64,000 bases of DNA from the NCBI GenBank assembly GCA_021203145.1, contig JAJQBS010000086.1, positions 8,343 to 72,342 on the forward strand, in the 5' to 3' direction. Of this stretch, positions 1 to 6,774 are shown piece by piece. This DNA comes from Lachnospiraceae bacterium. Lineage in GTDB: Bacteria > Bacillota > Clostridia > Lachnospirales > Lachnospiraceae. The position numbers and the translations under genes were made by a program. The notes beneath the pieces are model-generated. The model did no database searches. It saw only the letters and a program-made list of their open reading frames with translations, and was not told where the DNA came from. How positions within the stretch are numbered: the first letter of the stretch is position 1; each line of letters begins with the position of its first letter.

Positions 1-687
1 CACGCGGAAACCGTTCTCCTTGCAGAGCCTGATCGCGCGCAGCGCATCCTGCTCGGCTCCGCTGTGATGGCGCAGCCAGTCGTGATGCCCTGTTCCGTCA
101 TAGGAAATCTTCATGTAAGGCCGGCATCCGGCTTCCTTCATCTCGTCCAGAATCTCCTGCGTGATGAAGGAACCGTTGGTGTTCAGCTCATTCAGGAATA
201 TATGATGTCTCTGGGCACTGCGGACGACGTCCATGAAATGCGGGTGCATCATCGGTTCGCCGCCGGTCAGCGTCAGGGCGTTGATCCCGCAGGTCTCCAT
301 CTGCGTGAACAGGGTCTCCGCTTCCTCTAGAGTGAACTCGCTCTGGAGGCGCGCATTATCCGCCGCGTTAAAACAGTGCAGACAGTTATAGTTGCACTTG
401 CCCGTGAGCATCAGGCTGGCATGCGGGAAGTAGCGGTTGTTGCAGAATTTCGCCCGCTGCCAGTCGTTCATTCGCTCGCACGGCCGTGCCTCCCGGATGA
501 ATCCGCGCGCTTTCAGCGAAGCGGCAATTTCATTTTCGGGCAGGTCGGTTTCACCGTCGCACAGGGAGAGGAAATCAAATTCCCCTTTCTGCAGTTTTTT
601 TGCTTCATATTCGCCCCGGATATAATAAGCGCAGGGCACATACCACCAGCTGCGCAGGGCGATGCCGGGGTTTAAGATGTATTTCAT
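1..687 (-). CDS. RiPP-type radical SAM protein with N-terminal RRE-like region; 3' end runs off the left edge
   Basis: Hand translation from ATG at 687: MKYILNPGIALRSWWYVPCAYYIRG...FLSLCDGETDL...LTGKCNYNCLHCFN...LTLTGGEPMMHPHF...LNTNG...KISYDG. CxxxCxxC at 373-396 plus GGEP/TNG motifs; frame open to position 1, so absent from the ORF track. Confidence 0.9.
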   Translation of the reverse strand, partial: MKYILNPGIALRSWWYVPCAYYIRGEYEAKKLQKGEFDFLSLCDGETDLPENEIAASLKARGFIREARPCERMNDWQRAKFCNNRYFPHASLMLTGKCNYNCLHCFNAADNARLQSEFTLEEAETLFTQMETCGINALTLTGGEPMMHPHFMDVVRSAQRHHIFLNELNTNGSFITQEILDEMKEAGCRPYMKISYDGTGHHDWLRHHSGAEQDALRAIRLCKENGFRV

Positions 688-749
688 ACAGTCTGCTCTT
701 TTCTCTGTTTCACGGTGTCCGTCACCGTGAATTCCCCGAGATCATGATT

Positions 750-1118
750 TCATTTTGCCACTACTACCTGCCCGCTGACCGCGTCGGTGAATTGAATTCT
801 CACATAACAATTAAAGGTACTGCCTGAATCAATATATCTTTCAAGCAGGACTGCCCATAAATCCTCGGACACACTTAAACCCATCTCAGCCAGATTTATA
901 TCAAAATCAATCACACTGGTTCCTTTTGCTACGCTCACCGTCACCGGAAACTGTACCTGTACCGTTTCCGCTGTGATGTCGTCTTCGATGACGACTTCAG
1001 AGGCGCAGGTGTCGTCGCAGGTGTCGCTGGAATCGGAGCCGCCTGTCACCTGATCCAGTTCCTCGTCCACGATTTCTCCGGTGACAGGGTTTATTATCTT
1101 CTGGTCTTTATTGTCCAT
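750..1118 (-). CDS. Double-glycine-leader precursor protein 1 (122 aa)
   Basis: GGAGG RBS 7 nt upstream; leader NPVTGEIVDEELDQVTGG; directly upstream of and co-oriented with the radical SAM gene. Confidence 0.85.
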   Translation of the reverse strand: MDNKDQKIINPVTGEIVDEELDQVTGGSDSSDTCDDTCASEVVIEDDITAETVQVQFPVTVSVAKGTSVIDFDINLAEMGLSVSEDLWAVLLERYIDSGSTFNCYVRIQFTDAVSGQVVVAK

Positions 1119-1258
1119 AACAGTTCCTCCTTTTGTTGATTTGATTTTTTTGTTTTCCTTTGCTATCTGTTTCTACGACAAAACAGAGAAAAGGGAACCT
1201 GATTCGGCGGCGGCCGGCACAAAATTCTGCTTGCCTGTCGCAAGCCAGGTATTACAGA

Positions 1259-1287
1259 ATCATACCATTTTTCCTCCCTGCTTTCAA
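1259..1287 (-). promoter_or_regulatory. sigma-A promoter for precursor 1 and radical SAM
   Basis: Minus strand TTGAAA-N17-TATGAT with TG extension. Confidence 0.6.
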
Positions 1288-1352
1288 TATATTATTTTCC
1301 TTTTTCCGGCAAAAAACAAAATAACAGCTTTCCATTTTGCAACAAAAAGGGG

Positions 1353-1381
1353 ATGCCAAACGGAAAAACATGTGCTATAAT
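1353..1381 (+). promoter_or_regulatory. Divergent sigma-A promoter for precursors 2/3
   Basis: ATGCCA-N17-TATAAT with TGTGC extended -10. Confidence 0.55.
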
Positions 1382-1581
1382 CACAACAATTCATTCCCCC
1401 GCTGCAGACTATACCATCAGGGGTACCGGCATGTCGGCGGATTCTTTATGCTCCTGCTGCCCGTACGCCGCTCTGCGGAAATAAAGAAGAAAGCAATATC
1501 CCCCCGGCGTGTTTTCATCGTATAGACAGACAGCCGAAGATAAAGAAGCATAAATCAGAGAATTTACGAGGAGGACTGCAC

Positions 1582-1902
1582 ATGAGAACCAAAAAACTGC
1601 AGCACAACATGGAGCTCGAAAGCTTCACGGAGACGCCGGCAGGATATGAACTGCCCGATGAGCAGCTGGATGGCGTGTCCGGCGGCTTGATAGATGAGGC
1701 AATATACCCGGTGATCCTGCACGTCCAGGCAGGGGTAGCTATCGACGATGTTGAATACACATTAAGCGAATACTGTCTGCTCAGTGAAGCAGCCGCAGAG
1801 GCAGCGGCATATCTGGTCGAAGAATGTTCAAGCGATTCTATTCATTTAAGTGTCGCTGTAAAGATAAAAATAACCAACGCCACTACATGGGAACTGCTTT
1901 AA
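1582..1902 (+). CDS. Double-glycine-leader precursor protein 2 (106 aa)
   Basis: GAGGAGG RBS; leader YELPDEQLDGVSGG; post-GG region aligns with precursor 1. Confidence 0.85.
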   Translation: MRTKKLQHNMELESFTETPAGYELPDEQLDGVSGGLIDEAIYPVILHVQAGVAIDDVEYTLSEYCLLSEAAAEAAAYLVEECSSDSIHLSVAVKIKITNATTWELL

Positions 1903-2016
1903 GGCTGATACCGGTTTATACCGTGTCATTGTACAGCGATAACCGCTGTGGGGGGATTTCCTGTATAAACAGCAAAAAAGAATAAAAACAGGTCAAAAAA
2001 CAAAGGAGGATTTGCA

Positions 2017-2406
2017 ATGAATAACGGGGAAACGATCTTTACGGAGGAACTGATGCACAAAGCGAGGGAGTGTAAATCGCCGGAGGAAATCATCGCGCTT
2101 GCGAAAGAAAACGGCGTGGACATCACCGAAGCACAGGCGGAAGAATATTTTAAAATGCTCAGTCCCGTAAACGGGGAACTGGCAGACGAGGAACTGGATA
2201 ATGTGTCTGGTGGGTGTGAAACGGTAACAGTGAAAGCAGTGGATGAGAAAGGCAACATCTATTCTCTAAATTATCTTCGAGTTGAAACGTATACTGTGTG
2301 CTTCACCGGATATAACTCAGGCACATGTTCAAGCTGCGATAAAGTGAACTATTATGAGGATAATTATGGTAACAAAATATATTACTGCACTAACTATGAA
2401 GTATGA
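2017..2406 (+). CDS. Nif11-like leader RiPP precursor 3 (129 aa), Cys/Tyr-rich core
   Basis: AAGGAGG RBS; Nif11-type leader (ELMHKARECKSPEEIIALAKENGVDITEAQAEEYF) ending ELADEELDNVSGG; 63-aa core with 5 Cys. Confidence 0.9.
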   Translation: MNNGETIFTEELMHKARECKSPEEIIALAKENGVDITEAQAEEYFKMLSPVNGELADEELDNVSGGCETVTVKAVDEKGNIYSLNYLRVETYTVCFTGYNSGTCSSCDKVNYYEDNYGNKIYYCTNYEV

Positions 2407-2510
2407 AAGCTTTTTGACAGTACAAGTAGTACAAGCGACCTGACCCCAGGAAGAAAAAAGAAAACTATTCTTAAGACTTTGTCAAACGCATTCATACAGA
2501 TTTCTGTACA

Positions 2511-2551
2511 TACCTGGGGTCCACGGTTTATGGCACCGTGAACCCCAGGTA
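2511..2551. terminator. 17-bp stem hairpin downstream of precursor 3 (terminator or REP-like)
   Basis: TACCTGGGGTCCACGGT-ttatggc-ACCGTGAACCCCAGGTA, one mismatch; U-tract weak. Confidence 0.5.
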
Positions 2552-2684
2552 AATTGTTCGCCTTCCTGCAATGTCGTTTTTCATAAAGCATTCGTGTTGT
2601 TTAATGTAAAAATCAGAGCCAAATTCGTTGATTTTTACACGAATATATGCTATGCTATGTTCAGTACCTTCAGGGAGGTTAATT

Positions 2685-3980
2685 ATGTATAGAAAAATCA
2701 CGGGATTTTTGGAAAGCTGGAAAGCAAACAGATACCGCAAGCCCTTAATTTTGCAGGGAGCAAGACAGGTAGGTAAAACCTGGTCTGTTCTGGAATTTGG
2801 ACGCACCCATTATGAGAATGTCGCATATTTCAATTTTGAAACGAATCCAAAATTGAATGAAACCTTCACGGAAAGCATAAGCCCTGAATATCTGATACCG
2901 ATTTTGTCCCATATTGCAGGACAGACGATAGTAAAAGAAAAAACGCTGATTGTTTTTGATGAGGTGCAGCTTTGTGAAAGAGCTTTGACGAGCCTTAAAT
3001 ATTTCTGTGAGGATGCGCCGGAATATCATATCATTGTTGCAGGCAGTATGCTTGGCGTTGCAGTAAACAGGGCAAAGTTTTCTTTCCCTGTCGGTAAGGT
3101 AGATATGAAAACTCTCTATCCAATGGATATGGAAGAATTTATGTTAGCCTGCGGCGAAGATACCCTTGTGGAGCAGATTAAAAAGTGTTTTGAAACGAAC
3201 ACACCTCTGCCAGGTGCTTTACACGATGCGGCAATGCTGCTTTATCGTCAATATTTGATTGTTGGTGGTATGCCTGAATGTGTGACGCAGTTTGTCGGAA
3301 CGAAAGACTATATCCTTGTCCGGCATACGCAGGATACTATTCTTACAAGCTATCTTAATGATATGAGCAAATATAACAATCTTAATGAAATTAAGAAAAC
3401 AAGACTTGTTTATAACAATATCACAGTCCAGCTCTCAAAGAAAAACACCCGTTTTCAGTACAAGCTGATTAAAAAAGGCGGCAGGGCTTCCGAGTTTGAA
3501 AATGCGATTGAATGGCTTAGTCTGTCTGGTATCGTGTCACAGGTTTATAAAGCAGAGCAGATAAAAAAGCCGCTTGAAAACTACCGTGATATTGATGCTT
3601 TCAAAATCTATGTATCAGACTTAGGGCTGCTCTGTGCAAAAAAAGACTTAGCGGCAAATGATATTCTCTATATGGTTGACGAAATAAACGATTTCAAGGG
3701 TGGCATGGCTGAGAACTATGTCAATGTGCAGTTATCCATTAACGGCTACAACACCTACTATTGGGAGTCCGGGCGCGAGGCTGAAATTGACTTTATTATT
3801 CAGCGTGACGGACAGCTTATCCCGATTGAGGTCAAATCCGCAGACAATACCAGAGCCAAGAGTTTAAATCTGTATATGCAAAGACATCAGCCCGCCTACG
3901 CTATCAAGCTCTCTGCAAAAAACTTTGGCTTTGAGGACGGAAAAAAGACGGTTCCTCTCTACGCCGCATTTTGTATCTAA
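2685..3980 (+). CDS. AAA+ ATPase (AAA_14/DUF4143 type)
   Basis: GGAGG RBS before ATG 2685; Walker A GARQVGKT, Walker B VFDEVQ, C-terminal EIDF...IPIEVKS. Confidence 0.85.
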   Translation: MYRKITGFLESWKANRYRKPLILQGARQVGKTWSVLEFGRTHYENVAYFNFETNPKLNETFTESISPEYLIPILSHIAGQTIVKEKTLIVFDEVQLCERALTSLKYFCEDAPEYHIIVAGSMLGVAVNRAKFSFPVGKVDMKTLYPMDMEEFMLACGEDTLVEQIKKCFETNTPLPGALHDAAMLLYRQYLIVGGMPECVTQFVGTKDYILVRHTQDTILTSYLNDMSKYNNLNEIKKTRLVYNNITVQLSKKNTRFQYKLIKKGGRASEFENAIEWLSLSGIVSQVYKAEQIKKPLENYRDIDAFKIYVSDLGLLCAKKDLAANDILYMVDEINDFKGGMAENYVNVQLSINGYNTYYWESGREAEIDFIIQRDGQLIPIEVKSADNTRAKSLNLYMQRHQPAYAIKLSAKNFGFEDGKKTVPLYAAFCI

Positions 3981-4051: not shown

Positions 4052-4067
4052 GAAGGAGGTACCAATT

Positions 4068-4679
4068 ATGCCTGGAACCATTACACCGAAGCAACAGGAA
4101 ATCCTCGAATATATAAAAAGTGAGATCCTGCAACGCGGCTTCCCGCCGGCTGTCCGGGAGATCTGTCAGGCAGTTCACCTGAAATCCACATCCTCCGTTC
4201 ACTCCCACCTGGAGTCACTGGAGAAAAACGGATATATCCGGCGTGACCCGACCAAGCCGCGCGCGATTGAGATTCTGGACGATTCCTTTCAGATGGTACG
4301 CCGCGAGATGGTAAGTGTCCCCATCGTCGGCACAGTGGCTGCCGGTGTGCCGATTCTGGCAGAGCAGAACATTGACAGCTATTTCCCGATTCCGGCCGAA
4401 TATATGCCGAACGAGCAGTCTTTTATATTGCGTGTGAAAGGCGAGAGCATGATCAATGCCGGCATCCTCGATGGCGACTGTGTCCTGGTCCGCCAGCAGC
4501 AGACCGCGGAAAATGGGGATATCATTGTCGCACTCATCGAAGACTCTGCCACAGTCAAAACCTTTTACAAAGAAAACGGGCATATCCGCCTTCAGCCGGA
4601 AAACGATACCATGGATCCGATTATCGTCACGGATCTTGCCATCCTTGGAAAGGTTTTTGGCGTGTTCCGGTTCTTCTGA
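4068..4679 (+). CDS. lexA: SOS repressor LexA
   Basis: AAGGAGG RBS; winged HTH ([23 protein letters not shown]), VAAG cleavage site, GESM Ser, TVKT Lys. Confidence 0.97.
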
Positions 4680-6183: not shown

Positions 6184-6774
6184 TTAATCCTCCGTTTCTC
6201 CGATGAAATTTTTGTAATAATTATAAGCTACCAGCGACTGATTATCAAGGGGAGCCTTTTTTTCTTTTATATAAGCAAGCGTGTCCCGGAGCGTCATATA
6301 GACAGCCAGGTCAATGTCTGAAAAAGCCAGATGGCGGATACGTGCCAGATTGGGTGCTTTTACCCGCCCCGGCTCGATATAGTCCGCTAAAAAAATAATT
6401 TTTTCAAGCAGGGTCATATCCGGTTTTCCCGTCGTATGGCAGCTGATCGCGCTCAGAATCTCGGGATCCTCCACCCCATATTTGTCCTTTGCGATACAGG
6501 CTCCCAGCTTCGCGTGAAGAAGATGCGGGGCGGCACGTTCGACCGGGGAAACCGGCACCTTGTAATGCCCGCAAAGACGGAGCTTCTGCGCATTCGGGAT
6601 GCATTTCGCGCAGTCATGCAAAAGCCCTGCCACACAGGTGCGCGTGACATCCTCATCATGGCACATTGCCAGGGACGCCGCCGTATACATGACTCCCTCC
6701 GTGTGGATGAAGCGCTCTTCGTCAAGCTCTTTCTTCAGCTTTTTCTGTATTTTTATGATATTATAGTCGCTCAT
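6184..6774 (-). CDS. yqeK: YqeK HD-domain Ap4A hydrolase
   Basis: LLHDCAK, LLHAKLGA, HTTG, ADYIEPGR; position between nadD and rsfS. Confidence 0.9.
   Translation of the reverse strand: MSDYNIIKIQKKLKKELDEERFIHTEGVMYTAASLAMCHDEDVTRTCVAGLLHDCAKCIPNAQKLRLCGHYKVPVSPVERAAPHLLHAKLGACIAKDKYGVEDPEILSAISCHTTGKPDMTLLEKIIFLADYIEPGRVKAPNLARIRHLAFSDIDLAVYMTLRDTLAYIKEKKAPLDNQSLVAYNYYKNFIGETED

Follow-up and report, generated by a model that had tools for sequence, protein, structure and literature searches.

The left end of the 64,000-nucleotide stretch considered here (the window, from a Lachnospiraceae bacterium) carries part of a gene cassette that combines a radical S-adenosylmethionine (SAM)/SPASM enzyme with small precursor proteins, P1 to P4, whose leaders end in a double glycine (GG). 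The window covers positions 8343-72342 of contig C69 in a 3.54-Mb genome of 124 contigs (G000). To cover the 8.3 kb to its left, C69:1-11000 was retrieved as locus L002 and its open reading frames (ORFs) were listed. The locus is a real cassette of the type that yields peptides made by the ribosome and modified after translation (RiPPs), in a host of the gut-type Clostridia. The reading that we lean toward, with some reserve, is that a complete Nif11/NHLM cut-and-export cassette is joined to the enzyme, that P3 is modified, and that P2 and P4, and less certainly P1, are carried as cargo only. Taken by themselves, P3 is the probable substrate of the enzyme, and P2, P4, and perhaps P1 are probably served by the pump alone.

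Two precursor classes and an enzyme-less sister genome

The enzyme is a member of a large and uncharacterised family that is found in metagenome-assembled genomes (MAGs) of gut-type Clostridia. More than 1,900 relatives are found at E<=1e-10, and more than 120 full-length relatives share 57-79% identity with it. Their source annotations, where there are any, read merely "radical SAM protein," and the MAGs are assigned to Clostridia, Oscillospiraceae, or Ruminococcaceae. No paper on this family of enzymes turned up in full-text searches of the literature. For neighborhood counts, 38 related enzyme-bearing loci were tabulated, and GG genes were called with a regular expression for the leader. 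Of the small ORFs with GG leaders, 103 lie no more than 5 kb from the enzyme, in 326 kb of sequence, versus one in the remaining 181 kb, which makes them about 60 times denser close to the enzyme than in the outer parts of these loci. The background rate of the expression in the genome of the window is about 0.002 per kb. The possibility, raised with the initial annotation, that homologs of the enzyme never co-occur with GG-leader genes is thereby set aside. Across the whole 3.54-Mb genome the expression finds seven small ORFs; four lie within 3.5 kb at this locus, and the other three look spurious. Because four of the seven matches fall at one locus, the clustering of GG-leader genes is not due to chance.

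The precursors near these enzymes fall into two classes, one with a long Nif11-type leader (class A) and one with a short leader (class B). Duplicates were removed before counting. A Cys occurs within the first four residues of the core in 64 of 76 class A precursors versus 1 of 19 in class B, and that one is cut by the end of its contig (Fisher p = 1e-10, a value that overstates independence, as the sequences are related). In 23 of 25 loci, a class A gene lies directly upstream of the enzyme. Six class A cores contain no Cys other than the one that follows the cleavage site, so that the partner of a modified Cys cannot be another Cys there. The tail of the class A leader has the consensus AKAYFxxLNPKTGEL(A/S)DDELDNV(A/S)GG.

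Among P1 to P4, only P3 is classed by its sequence features as a family-typical precursor of class A. It takes on a 66-residue Nif11-type leader followed by a core of 63 residues that starts with Cys and holds five Cys, including a CSSC motif. P3 matches Pfam Nif11 with 26.3 bits against a cut-off of 23.8 and TIGR03798 with 32.3 bits, exactly at the cut-off; the Nif11 profile finds no match in P1, P2, or P4. In locus L035, which contains the closest relative of the enzyme (79% identity), the gene directly upstream of that relative encodes a precursor homologous to P3 (E 5e-29). A model of the class A leader tail scores P3 at 46.9 bits, P1 at 32.5, and P2 and P4 at 17-18. The leaders of P1, P2, and P3 end in EIVDEELDQVTGG, ELPDEQLDGVSGG, and ELADEELDNVSGG, respectively. 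At positions -12/-7/-4, P1 carries I/L/V, and P2, P3, and P4 carry L/L/V, after which the GG follows. All four thereby agree with the consensus for leaders of PCAT cargo, which has a hydrophobic residue at -12, Leu at -7, and a small hydrophobic residue at -4 (PMC6959990).

P2 and P4 are placed in class B by the same features, as their leaders of 33-35 residues match just the last dozen positions of the tail model and their cores have no early Cys. In P2, a short GG leader of 35 residues precedes a 71-residue orphan domain with a net charge of -10. P1 appears intermediate between the classes. Its short GG leader of 27 residues is followed by an acidic, Cys-containing linker (SDSSDTCDDTCASE...) and then by an orphan domain of about 70 residues. 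The P1 leader is the best of all short leaders against the Nif11 tail model, the NPxxGE piece included, and the first Cys of the core stands at +7, inside the acidic linker DTCDDTCASE. The initial annotation had treated the GG genes as equivalent substrates of one maturase. In that form this is not supported; the combination of a Nif11 leader with a Cys after the GG is found in P3 only.

A sister genome (GCA_021203365.1, G041) harbors a related cassette that is covered by two contigs, each of which breaks inside the repetitive gene for a leucine-rich repeat (LRR) protein. The first contig (L038) carries SpoIIE, P1', a GG gene of 97 amino acids, P4', and the beginning of the LRR gene. The LRR gene ends on the second, which also carries a sigma factor, the 160-residue HlyD-like protein, a 95%-identical C39 peptidase ABC transporter (PCAT), and the second ABC subunit (ABC2). 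The enzyme gene is absent between P1' and P4', and no match at E<=1e-10 is found anywhere in the 3.1-Mb sister assembly. The SPASM model finds three proteins in the sister versus four in G000, and the extra one is the enzyme of this locus. P2' lies on a separate contig, with its promoter region conserved and far from any radical SAM gene. At the enzyme's position stands the 97-residue gene, whose product has a P3-type core (E 8e-11 to L035) with a short leader and with Met, not Cys, after the GG. Within this pair of genomes, the enzyme, the Nif11 leader, and the post-cleavage Cys are present together or absent together, and P1, P2, and P4 stay intact with or without the enzyme. The persistence of P1' and P4' with the same pump in an assembly that lacks such an enzyme also speaks against the reading of one maturase for all GG genes. 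The comparison points in the same direction as the class statistics, as a single comparison with a sister genome that is a MAG.

The cores of P1, P2, and P4 align over a common domain of about 70 residues with the pattern YP(V/I)T(V/L)...G...L...L...I.IT.A; P2 and P4 share 31% identity over 89 residues. The net charge of these acidic cores is -10 to -13.5, with a pI of 4.05. Searched with a profile of the domain, 1.84 billion representative proteins give three real matches, one orthologue each of P1, P2, and P4, all from the sister assembly. Six other matches below E 0.001 are longer proteins matched in multiple short stretches, and these were read as spurious. The profile finds no copy of the domain in 40 related genomes, and BLAST finds none in 32 related loci and no extra copies in the genome of the window. 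A weak match to the P3 core on contig C9, which lies inside a larger unrelated ORF, was likewise discarded. AlphaFold2 models the orphan domain from a six-sequence alignment with a mean confidence (pLDDT) of 52.7 as a strand, two helices, and two strands; a Foldseek search with this low-confidence model returns nothing below E 1.2. By these searches, P1, P2, and P4 appear as a nearly unique family of acidic mini-proteins.

Between G000 and the sister, the ratio of nonsynonymous to synonymous divergence (dN/dS) is 0.96 for the P1 core (dS 0.31), 0.68 for the P4 core (dS 0.36), and 0.48 for the P2 core (dS 0.20). For comparison, in the same genome pair it is 0.22 for the LRR gene and 0.08 for a SpoIIE fragment (96% amino-acid identity). 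All six P1/P2/P4-type copies in the two genomes retain open frames, the GGAGG site, the GG motif, and the hydrophobic pattern. These rates, together with the intact frames and motifs, would fit fast-evolving secreted proteins.

Among the 103 neighboring ORFs, the length of the core has a median of 62 residues and the number of Cys a median of five. CxxC motifs occur at least once in 76 of them and at least twice in 45, and many of the cores look like zinc ribbons. Paired CxxC knuckles, 10-25 residues apart (e.g. CPKCG...CSKCG), are seen in L008, L013, L020, L021, L024, L027, L031-L034, L036, and L048; these two-knuckle cores look like zinc ribbons exported via the PCAT. Short-leader versions resembling zinc ribbons recur downstream of the enzyme, such as FLCACxxC...FCxxCG...NKIRKK. 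Another recurrent class A core of 70 residues, CGGGY..RP.PEF..GE.VLYI..W.......KVLKR.YENDGWYY.LK..DG (L008 7141, L009 9156, and L013 9150), is poor in Cys and resembles a small folded domain rich in beta structure; it is a further family of protein-like cargo. In L033 (11164-13729), several Nif11-leader genes downstream of the enzyme encode basic cores of 13-19 residues, whose sole Cys is the last residue (...KPGSC, ...SKNC). L035 (1541-4651) harbors a second, different radical SAM gene of 467 amino acids with its own long-leader precursors, which are rich in CC/CxC (VCCCACVAGGGG..., CICALPGNGYGGLCSCV...), and a LytTR-type two-component system lies upstream.

The SPASM enzyme and its export pump

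Within the window, 229 residues of the enzyme are encoded before the ORF leaves the left edge. This part includes LSLCDG (residues 40-45) and CNYNCLHC (residues 98-105), and it matches the Pfam Radical_SAM family at 8e-20 (PF04055 at 7e-20 on the full enzyme). The SPASM half of the gene lies left of window position 1. The initial annotation had pointed to that side as the place to look for a SPASM domain and a C39 peptidase transporter, and both are found there. SPASM (PF13186) is matched with 25.8 bits against a cut-off of 21.5 (E 1e-5), with the motif CxxCx5Cx3C (CGKCEWFPYCCGGC). The three cysteines of the radical SAM CX3CX2C motif (C98, C102, and C105) are invariant among 52 relatives, as are C335, C353, C402, C405, C411, C415, and C434 in the SPASM half, which include cysteines for two auxiliary clusters. 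The enzyme reaches none of the curated NCBIfam cut-offs. The best score is to heme b synthase AhbD (114 bits versus 500), and the models for sacti- and ranthipeptide synthases also stay below their cut-offs (PapB 64.7 versus 340, StsB 82.1 versus 625, WgkB 87.9 versus 650). With the enzyme below every curated family cut-off, the earlier description of the locus as one of unknown class stands.

The nearest solved structure by sequence is SkfB (E 1e-9). An AlphaFold2 model of the enzyme, built from an alignment of 52 relatives, has a pLDDT of 90.7, and its fold matches SkfB (8e-16), SuiB (2.7e-15, 494 columns), and anSME (1.6e-13), followed by CteB, PqqE, TigE, and ChlB. The nearest of these solved folds, SkfB and SuiB, and then CteB, are RiPP maturases. 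The matched proteins have one build in common, that of SPASM enzymes that modify peptides and bind the substrate by a domain at the N terminus. Residues 1-66 are modeled at a pLDDT above 90 as three strands, after which helices and strands alternate, and this domain is likely a RiPP recognition element (RRE). The earlier description of the enzyme as "RRE-like" agrees with the predicted topology only and finds no support in profile searches: PDB sequences and Pfam, searched with a profile of residues 1-90, yield nothing significant, the best match being an OmpR-type winged helix at E 0.35.

SkfB, CteB, PapB, and SuiB display, as here, a radical SAM barrel and a SPASM domain with two auxiliary clusters, together with an N-terminal winged helix like the one predicted for this enzyme, and their substrates, like the predicted ones here, contain Cys. 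However, the sequence identity to these enzymes is just 13-18%, with scores far under the curated cut-offs. Furthermore, the predicted substrates here are mini-proteins with a Nif11 leader, whose constant feature is the Cys beside the cleavage site. A further likeness is offered by CrpC of Methanococcus voltae, which, according to the published abstract, puts ranthionine cross-links on the Cys-rich protein CrpA (PMC13692751). As described there, CrpC is also a radical SAM enzyme of the SPASM kind for which an RRE is predicted, and its substrate, encoded beside it, is Cys-rich and of protein size (PMC13692751). The likeness is one of description; the Crp system is archaeal, and its abstract mentions neither a GG leader nor a PCAT (PMC13692751).

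Next to the enzyme, the cassette encodes a pump that is made up of two ABC subunits. The PCAT matches TIGR03796 with 948.1 bits against a cut-off of 853.3 and Peptidase_C39 at 7.6e-34. ABC2, which has no active peptidase, matches TIGR03797 with 727.6 bits against 709.4. A third protein of 160 residues is HlyD-like but misses the TIGR03794 cut-off (33.1 bits versus 156.2, matched at positions 1-46 only); in 20 related loci the protein is conserved with the same reduced length. Two of the four defining parts of the NHLM/Nif11 system are therefore above the cut-off, the P3 leader is exactly at the cut-off, and the short HlyD variant fails. On this profile evidence, the pump and the P3 leader are classed as members of the NHLM/Nif11 system. 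Orthologues of the PCAT, ABC2, and the 160-residue protein are present in the enzyme locus in 20 of the 38 related loci, and many of the other loci lie on short contigs.

Export systems of the NHLM type with Nif11-derived precursors (TIGR03796, TIGR03797, TIGR03794, and TIGR03798) were reportedly described by Haft, Basu, and Mitchell in 2010. A Lachnospiraceae example of a Nif11-leader/C39-peptidase pump system is LahT/LahA (PMC6363468). The locus shares with these systems a Nif11-type leader ending in GG, several precursors, and a two-subunit pump with one C39 peptidase. It differs from both in that the tailoring enzyme is a radical SAM/SPASM protein and not a lanthionine synthetase or cyclodehydratase, and in that the cores are protein-sized (63-95 residues). 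Compared to Nif11/NHLM systems in general, the HlyD-like partner is a stub of 160 residues, and three of the four precursors lack a Nif11 domain.

For the short-leader precursors, the closest layout is that of CtA, which is carried by PCAT1 of Clostridium thermocellum and consists of a 24-residue GG leader and 66 residues of unmodified cargo (PMC6959990). P1, P2, and P4 likewise have a short GG leader and then a putative cargo. The specificity of PCAT1 resides in the leader only, namely L-12, E-8, L-7, position -4, and the GG (PMC6959990). The paper on PCAT1 discusses no radical SAM enzyme, and the CtA cargo has no known function (PMC6959990). The likeness is one of layout, and the domain of P1, P2, and P4 has no detectable relatives. 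Another point of comparison is the class II bacteriocins.

These bacteriocins typically have a cationic, membrane-active core and an adjacent immunity gene. In contrast, the cores of P1, P2, and P4 are acidic, and no small membrane gene of the immunity type is seen among the locus ORFs (C69:1-11000).

Predicted modification, cargo, and competing explanations

In the proposed mechanism, the Nif11-type leader of P3 would dock on the N-terminal winged-helix domain of the enzyme. The enzyme, using three Fe-S clusters, would then modify the Cys of P3 directly after the GG. The most likely product would be a thioether cross-link from this Cys to a non-Cys carbon, as in sacti- and ranthipeptides. The PCAT/ABC2 pair would bind the end of the leader, cut after the GG, and export the core. 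P2 and P4 would use the cleavage and export step only, and P1 could go either way. P2 and P4 are read as export-only cargo because they have the short leader that the peptidase needs and no Cys next to the cleavage site. The exported products may act in antagonism or in signaling.

Several points weigh against this assignment. P1 occupies the slot that is held by class A genes in other loci, and it retains a conserved DTCASE motif and the NPxxGE piece of the leader; P1 may thus be a substrate of the enzyme after all. P4 lies 64 nucleotides downstream of the enzyme in the same operon, a placement that also fits a promiscuous enzyme. The assignment of the enzyme's N-terminal domain as an RRE has no sequence support. 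The cassettes of 18 further loci with the pump, drawn from 399 Clostridia genomes to see whether the Cys beside the cleavage site goes with the enzyme, serve several unrelated peptide classes, and many of their precursors escaped the regular expression, a mixture too heterogeneous to inform on that link. The dN/dS values of the orphan cores could reflect relaxed constraint rather than an arms race. The sister is a MAG of unknown completeness, and the missing enzyme could be an assembly gap; on the other hand, the sister cassette is contiguous across the position of the enzyme gene. More generally, both the chemistry and the division of the substrates are read from sequence patterns.

The placement of P1 and P4 lends itself most directly to a different explanation, in which one promiscuous maturase modifies P1 to P4 through their shared leader end, ELxDExLxxVxGG, and the locus is a multi-substrate RiPP locus. 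P1 and P4 lie on either side of the enzyme gene in a single operon, at distances of 62 and 64 nucleotides, the leader end is common to all four precursors, and the P1 leader resembles the Nif11 tail (32.5 bits). Moreover, P1, P2, and P4 contain 2-3 Cys each, one of which is aligned in P2 and P4, and substrate-tolerant radical SAM maturases are known, with PapB as an example. We nevertheless regard this explanation as rather improbable, though it deserves to be taken seriously. No Cys is conserved across P1, P2, and P4, the short-leader precursors of the 38 related loci have no Cys beside the cleavage site, and P1' and P4' are intact in the sister, which has the same pump and lacks such an enzyme. 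The common leader end is also the motif that PCAT peptidases read (PMC6959990). Since these peptidases recognize it, the shared end does not imply binding by the enzyme. A second explanation accepts the post-cleavage Cys as the target but not the thioether. Like anSME, the enzyme could oxidize this Cys to an aldehyde of the formylglycine type, or it could perform an epimerization or another change nearby. This would agree with anSME being among the best fold matches (1.6e-13) and with the constant feature of the cores, a single Cys with no conserved partner at a fixed spacing, which is the sole Cys in some of them. It is the less likely of the two, as the top fold matches SkfB, SuiB, and CteB are peptide cross-linking enzymes, most cores are rich in Cys with recurring spacings, and no sulfatase-type C-x-P-x-R motif follows the Cys.

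It is also conceivable, but very unlikely, that P1, P2, and P4 are decaying or nonfunctional duplicates left by rearrangements of the cassette. Their high core dN/dS compared to SpoIIE and the LRR gene would suit decay, as would the restriction of the domain family to two genomes among 1.84 billion representative proteins and the presence of the DNA of the locus in just one public sequencing run. Yet the six copies have kept their frames, GGAGG sites, GG motifs, and hydrophobic pattern at a dS of 0.2-0.36, and the promoter and 5' region of P2 are 80% conserved.

Locus organization and biological meaning

The features of the locus are collected in Table 1. The enzyme ORF, P1, P2, and P3 lie where the initial annotation had placed them, in the divergent arrangement that it described, with P1 and the enzyme on the minus strand and P2 and P3 on the plus strand. 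Its strong ribosome-binding sites for P1, P2, and P3 are likewise found (GGAGG, 7-9 nucleotides before each ATG), and all three leaders end in ELxDExLxxV(S/T)GG, in keeping with the leader motif that it proposed. Its count of three precursors is right for the window but misses the fourth, P4, just to the left.

Table 1. Genes and predicted signals of the radical SAM/SPASM cassette (window coordinates unless C69 is given)
Feature	Coordinates	Strand	Basis
Radical SAM/SPASM enzyme, N-terminal 229 amino acids	1..687	-	ORF; full gene 459 amino acids at C69:7650-9029
P1, 122 amino acids	750..1118	-	ORF, GG leader
P2, 106 amino acids	1582..1902	+	ORF, GG leader
P3, 129 amino acids	2017..2406	+	ORF, Nif11/TIGR03798 matches
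P4, fourth GG-leader gene, 111 amino acids	C69:7250-7585	-	ORF, GG leader, strong GGAGG site
BspA-type LRR protein, N-terminal signal/transmembrane-like hydrophobic segment	C69:6048-7225	-	domain search
HlyD-like membrane protein, 160 amino acids	C69:5440-5922	-	matches TIGR03794 positions 1-46 only
C39 peptidase ABC transporter (PCAT)	C69:3241-5424	-	TIGR03796, 948 bits
Second ABC subunit (ABC2)	C69:1012-3222	-	TIGR03797, 727.6 bits
TetR-family regulator	C69:114-809	-	profile matches
Promoter-like TTGAAA-17-TATGAT with TG, toward P1/enzyme operon	1259..1287	-	consensus scan; conserved in sister
Promoter-like, extended -10 (TGcTATAAT), toward P2/P3	1353..1381	+	consensus scan; conserved upstream of sister P2'
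Perfect 9-bp hairpin UUCACGGUG-5 nucleotides-CACCGUGAA, no T-tract, between P1 and enzyme gene	709..731	-	fold/palindrome scan
Long hairpin after P3	2512..2550	+	palindrome; fold z-score -5.1 for window 2400-2600

Two operons are proposed. The first, on the minus strand, comprises P1, the enzyme, P4, the gene for the LRR surface protein, the gene for the 160-residue HlyD-like protein, PCAT, ABC2, and TetR, and the second, which is divergent, comprises P2 and P3. P4 begins 64 nucleotides beyond the stop codon of the enzyme gene. Cotranscription of P1 with the enzyme gene is plausible given a gap of 62 nucleotides and a 9-bp hairpin without a T-tract between them. This hairpin is possibly a transcript-stabilizing or attenuating stem that sets the ratio of precursor to enzyme. 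All four precursor genes are preceded by GGAGG, and the site of the enzyme gene is weak and follows the hairpin; the combination of strong precursor sites, a weak enzyme site, and the hairpin would give more precursor than enzyme. The 463 bp that separate P1 and P2 contain both promoter-like sites, each directed outward. The hairpin after P3 is where the P2-P3 transcript likely ends and where the locus has its right border. Its core sequence, CACGGT-N7-ACCGTG, occurs twice in the 64-kb window (711-729 and 2522-2540; 0.03 expected), after P1 and after P3, and four times in the genome, the other two copies being at C21:361 and C56:3620. A reading of this sequence as an operator was discarded, as the copies on C21 and C56 are ordinary gene-end hairpins; all four copies are probably terminator-type stems of a shared kind.

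About 340 bp upstream of P2 (window 1240-1581 versus L040 1840-2185) are around 80% identical in the sister genome. This block holds both divergent promoter-like sites and a 5' region of about 200 nucleotides. The surroundings of P2' differ, as it stands beside a MatE/HATPase gene, and the promoter block seems to travel with P2. A search of the long 5' regions with Rfam gives no credible match, and the 5' region of P2 folds no better than shuffled sequence (z +0.38).

The cassette is an accessory element. Its enzyme and pump genes have a G+C content of 55-58% versus 51% for the genome, and both a close relative of the radical SAM/SPASM enzyme and the orphan domain are absent from 24 species of the same genus and from 16 further genomes of the same order; two of the same-genus genomes show only radical SAM matches of about 30% identity to the enzyme. 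To the right of the locus, an AAA_14/DUF4143 ATPase gene (window 2685-3980, 41% G+C) and a LexA-like repressor gene (~4060-4679) appear to lie outside the cassette. The LRR gene stands between P4 and the export genes and contains a run of N at ~6340-6440 (C69), across which the reading frame shifts; its linkage to P4 is retained in the sister genome (80% identity). The repeats of this gene defeat assembly, as both sister contigs also break within it. At the start of C69 (L002 2-80) lies a short tandem repeat with the translation CLSVCLSVCLSV, which probably ended the assembly there.

In terms of its place among known enzymes, the enzyme has the build of the sacti-, ranthi-, and streptide synthases and is a member of none of their curated families. 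Radical SAM/SPASM enzymes that act on leader-bearing peptides are a main source of new peptide chemistry, and this family is abundant in MAGs of gut-type Clostridia and has no curated model. Its protein-sized and often zinc-ribbon-like substrates blur the distinction between a modified peptide and a modified protein. Tentatively, the cassettes may represent a two-tier secretion of folded mini-proteins. In such an arrangement, the Nif11 tier would be stapled or otherwise altered at its future N-terminal Cys by new radical SAM chemistry, the short-leader tier would be exported unmodified, and the enzyme and its substrate would be gained or lost as a unit, as with the sister genome. Here, the second tier would have passed to a lineage-specific and rapidly diversifying acidic domain that has no relatives.

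Cassettes of this type are widespread. What is particular to this locus is the orphan acidic cargo family and the sister cassette without the enzyme. The three acidic mini-proteins constitute a new predicted family of secreted proteins. The locus also provides a ready-made experiment, with one canonical and three noncanonical substrates beside one enzyme, and with a sister that keeps the pump and the noncanonical cargo without that enzyme. The pairing of the locus with its sister allows one to ask which features of leader and core commit a GG-leader protein to modification and which to export.

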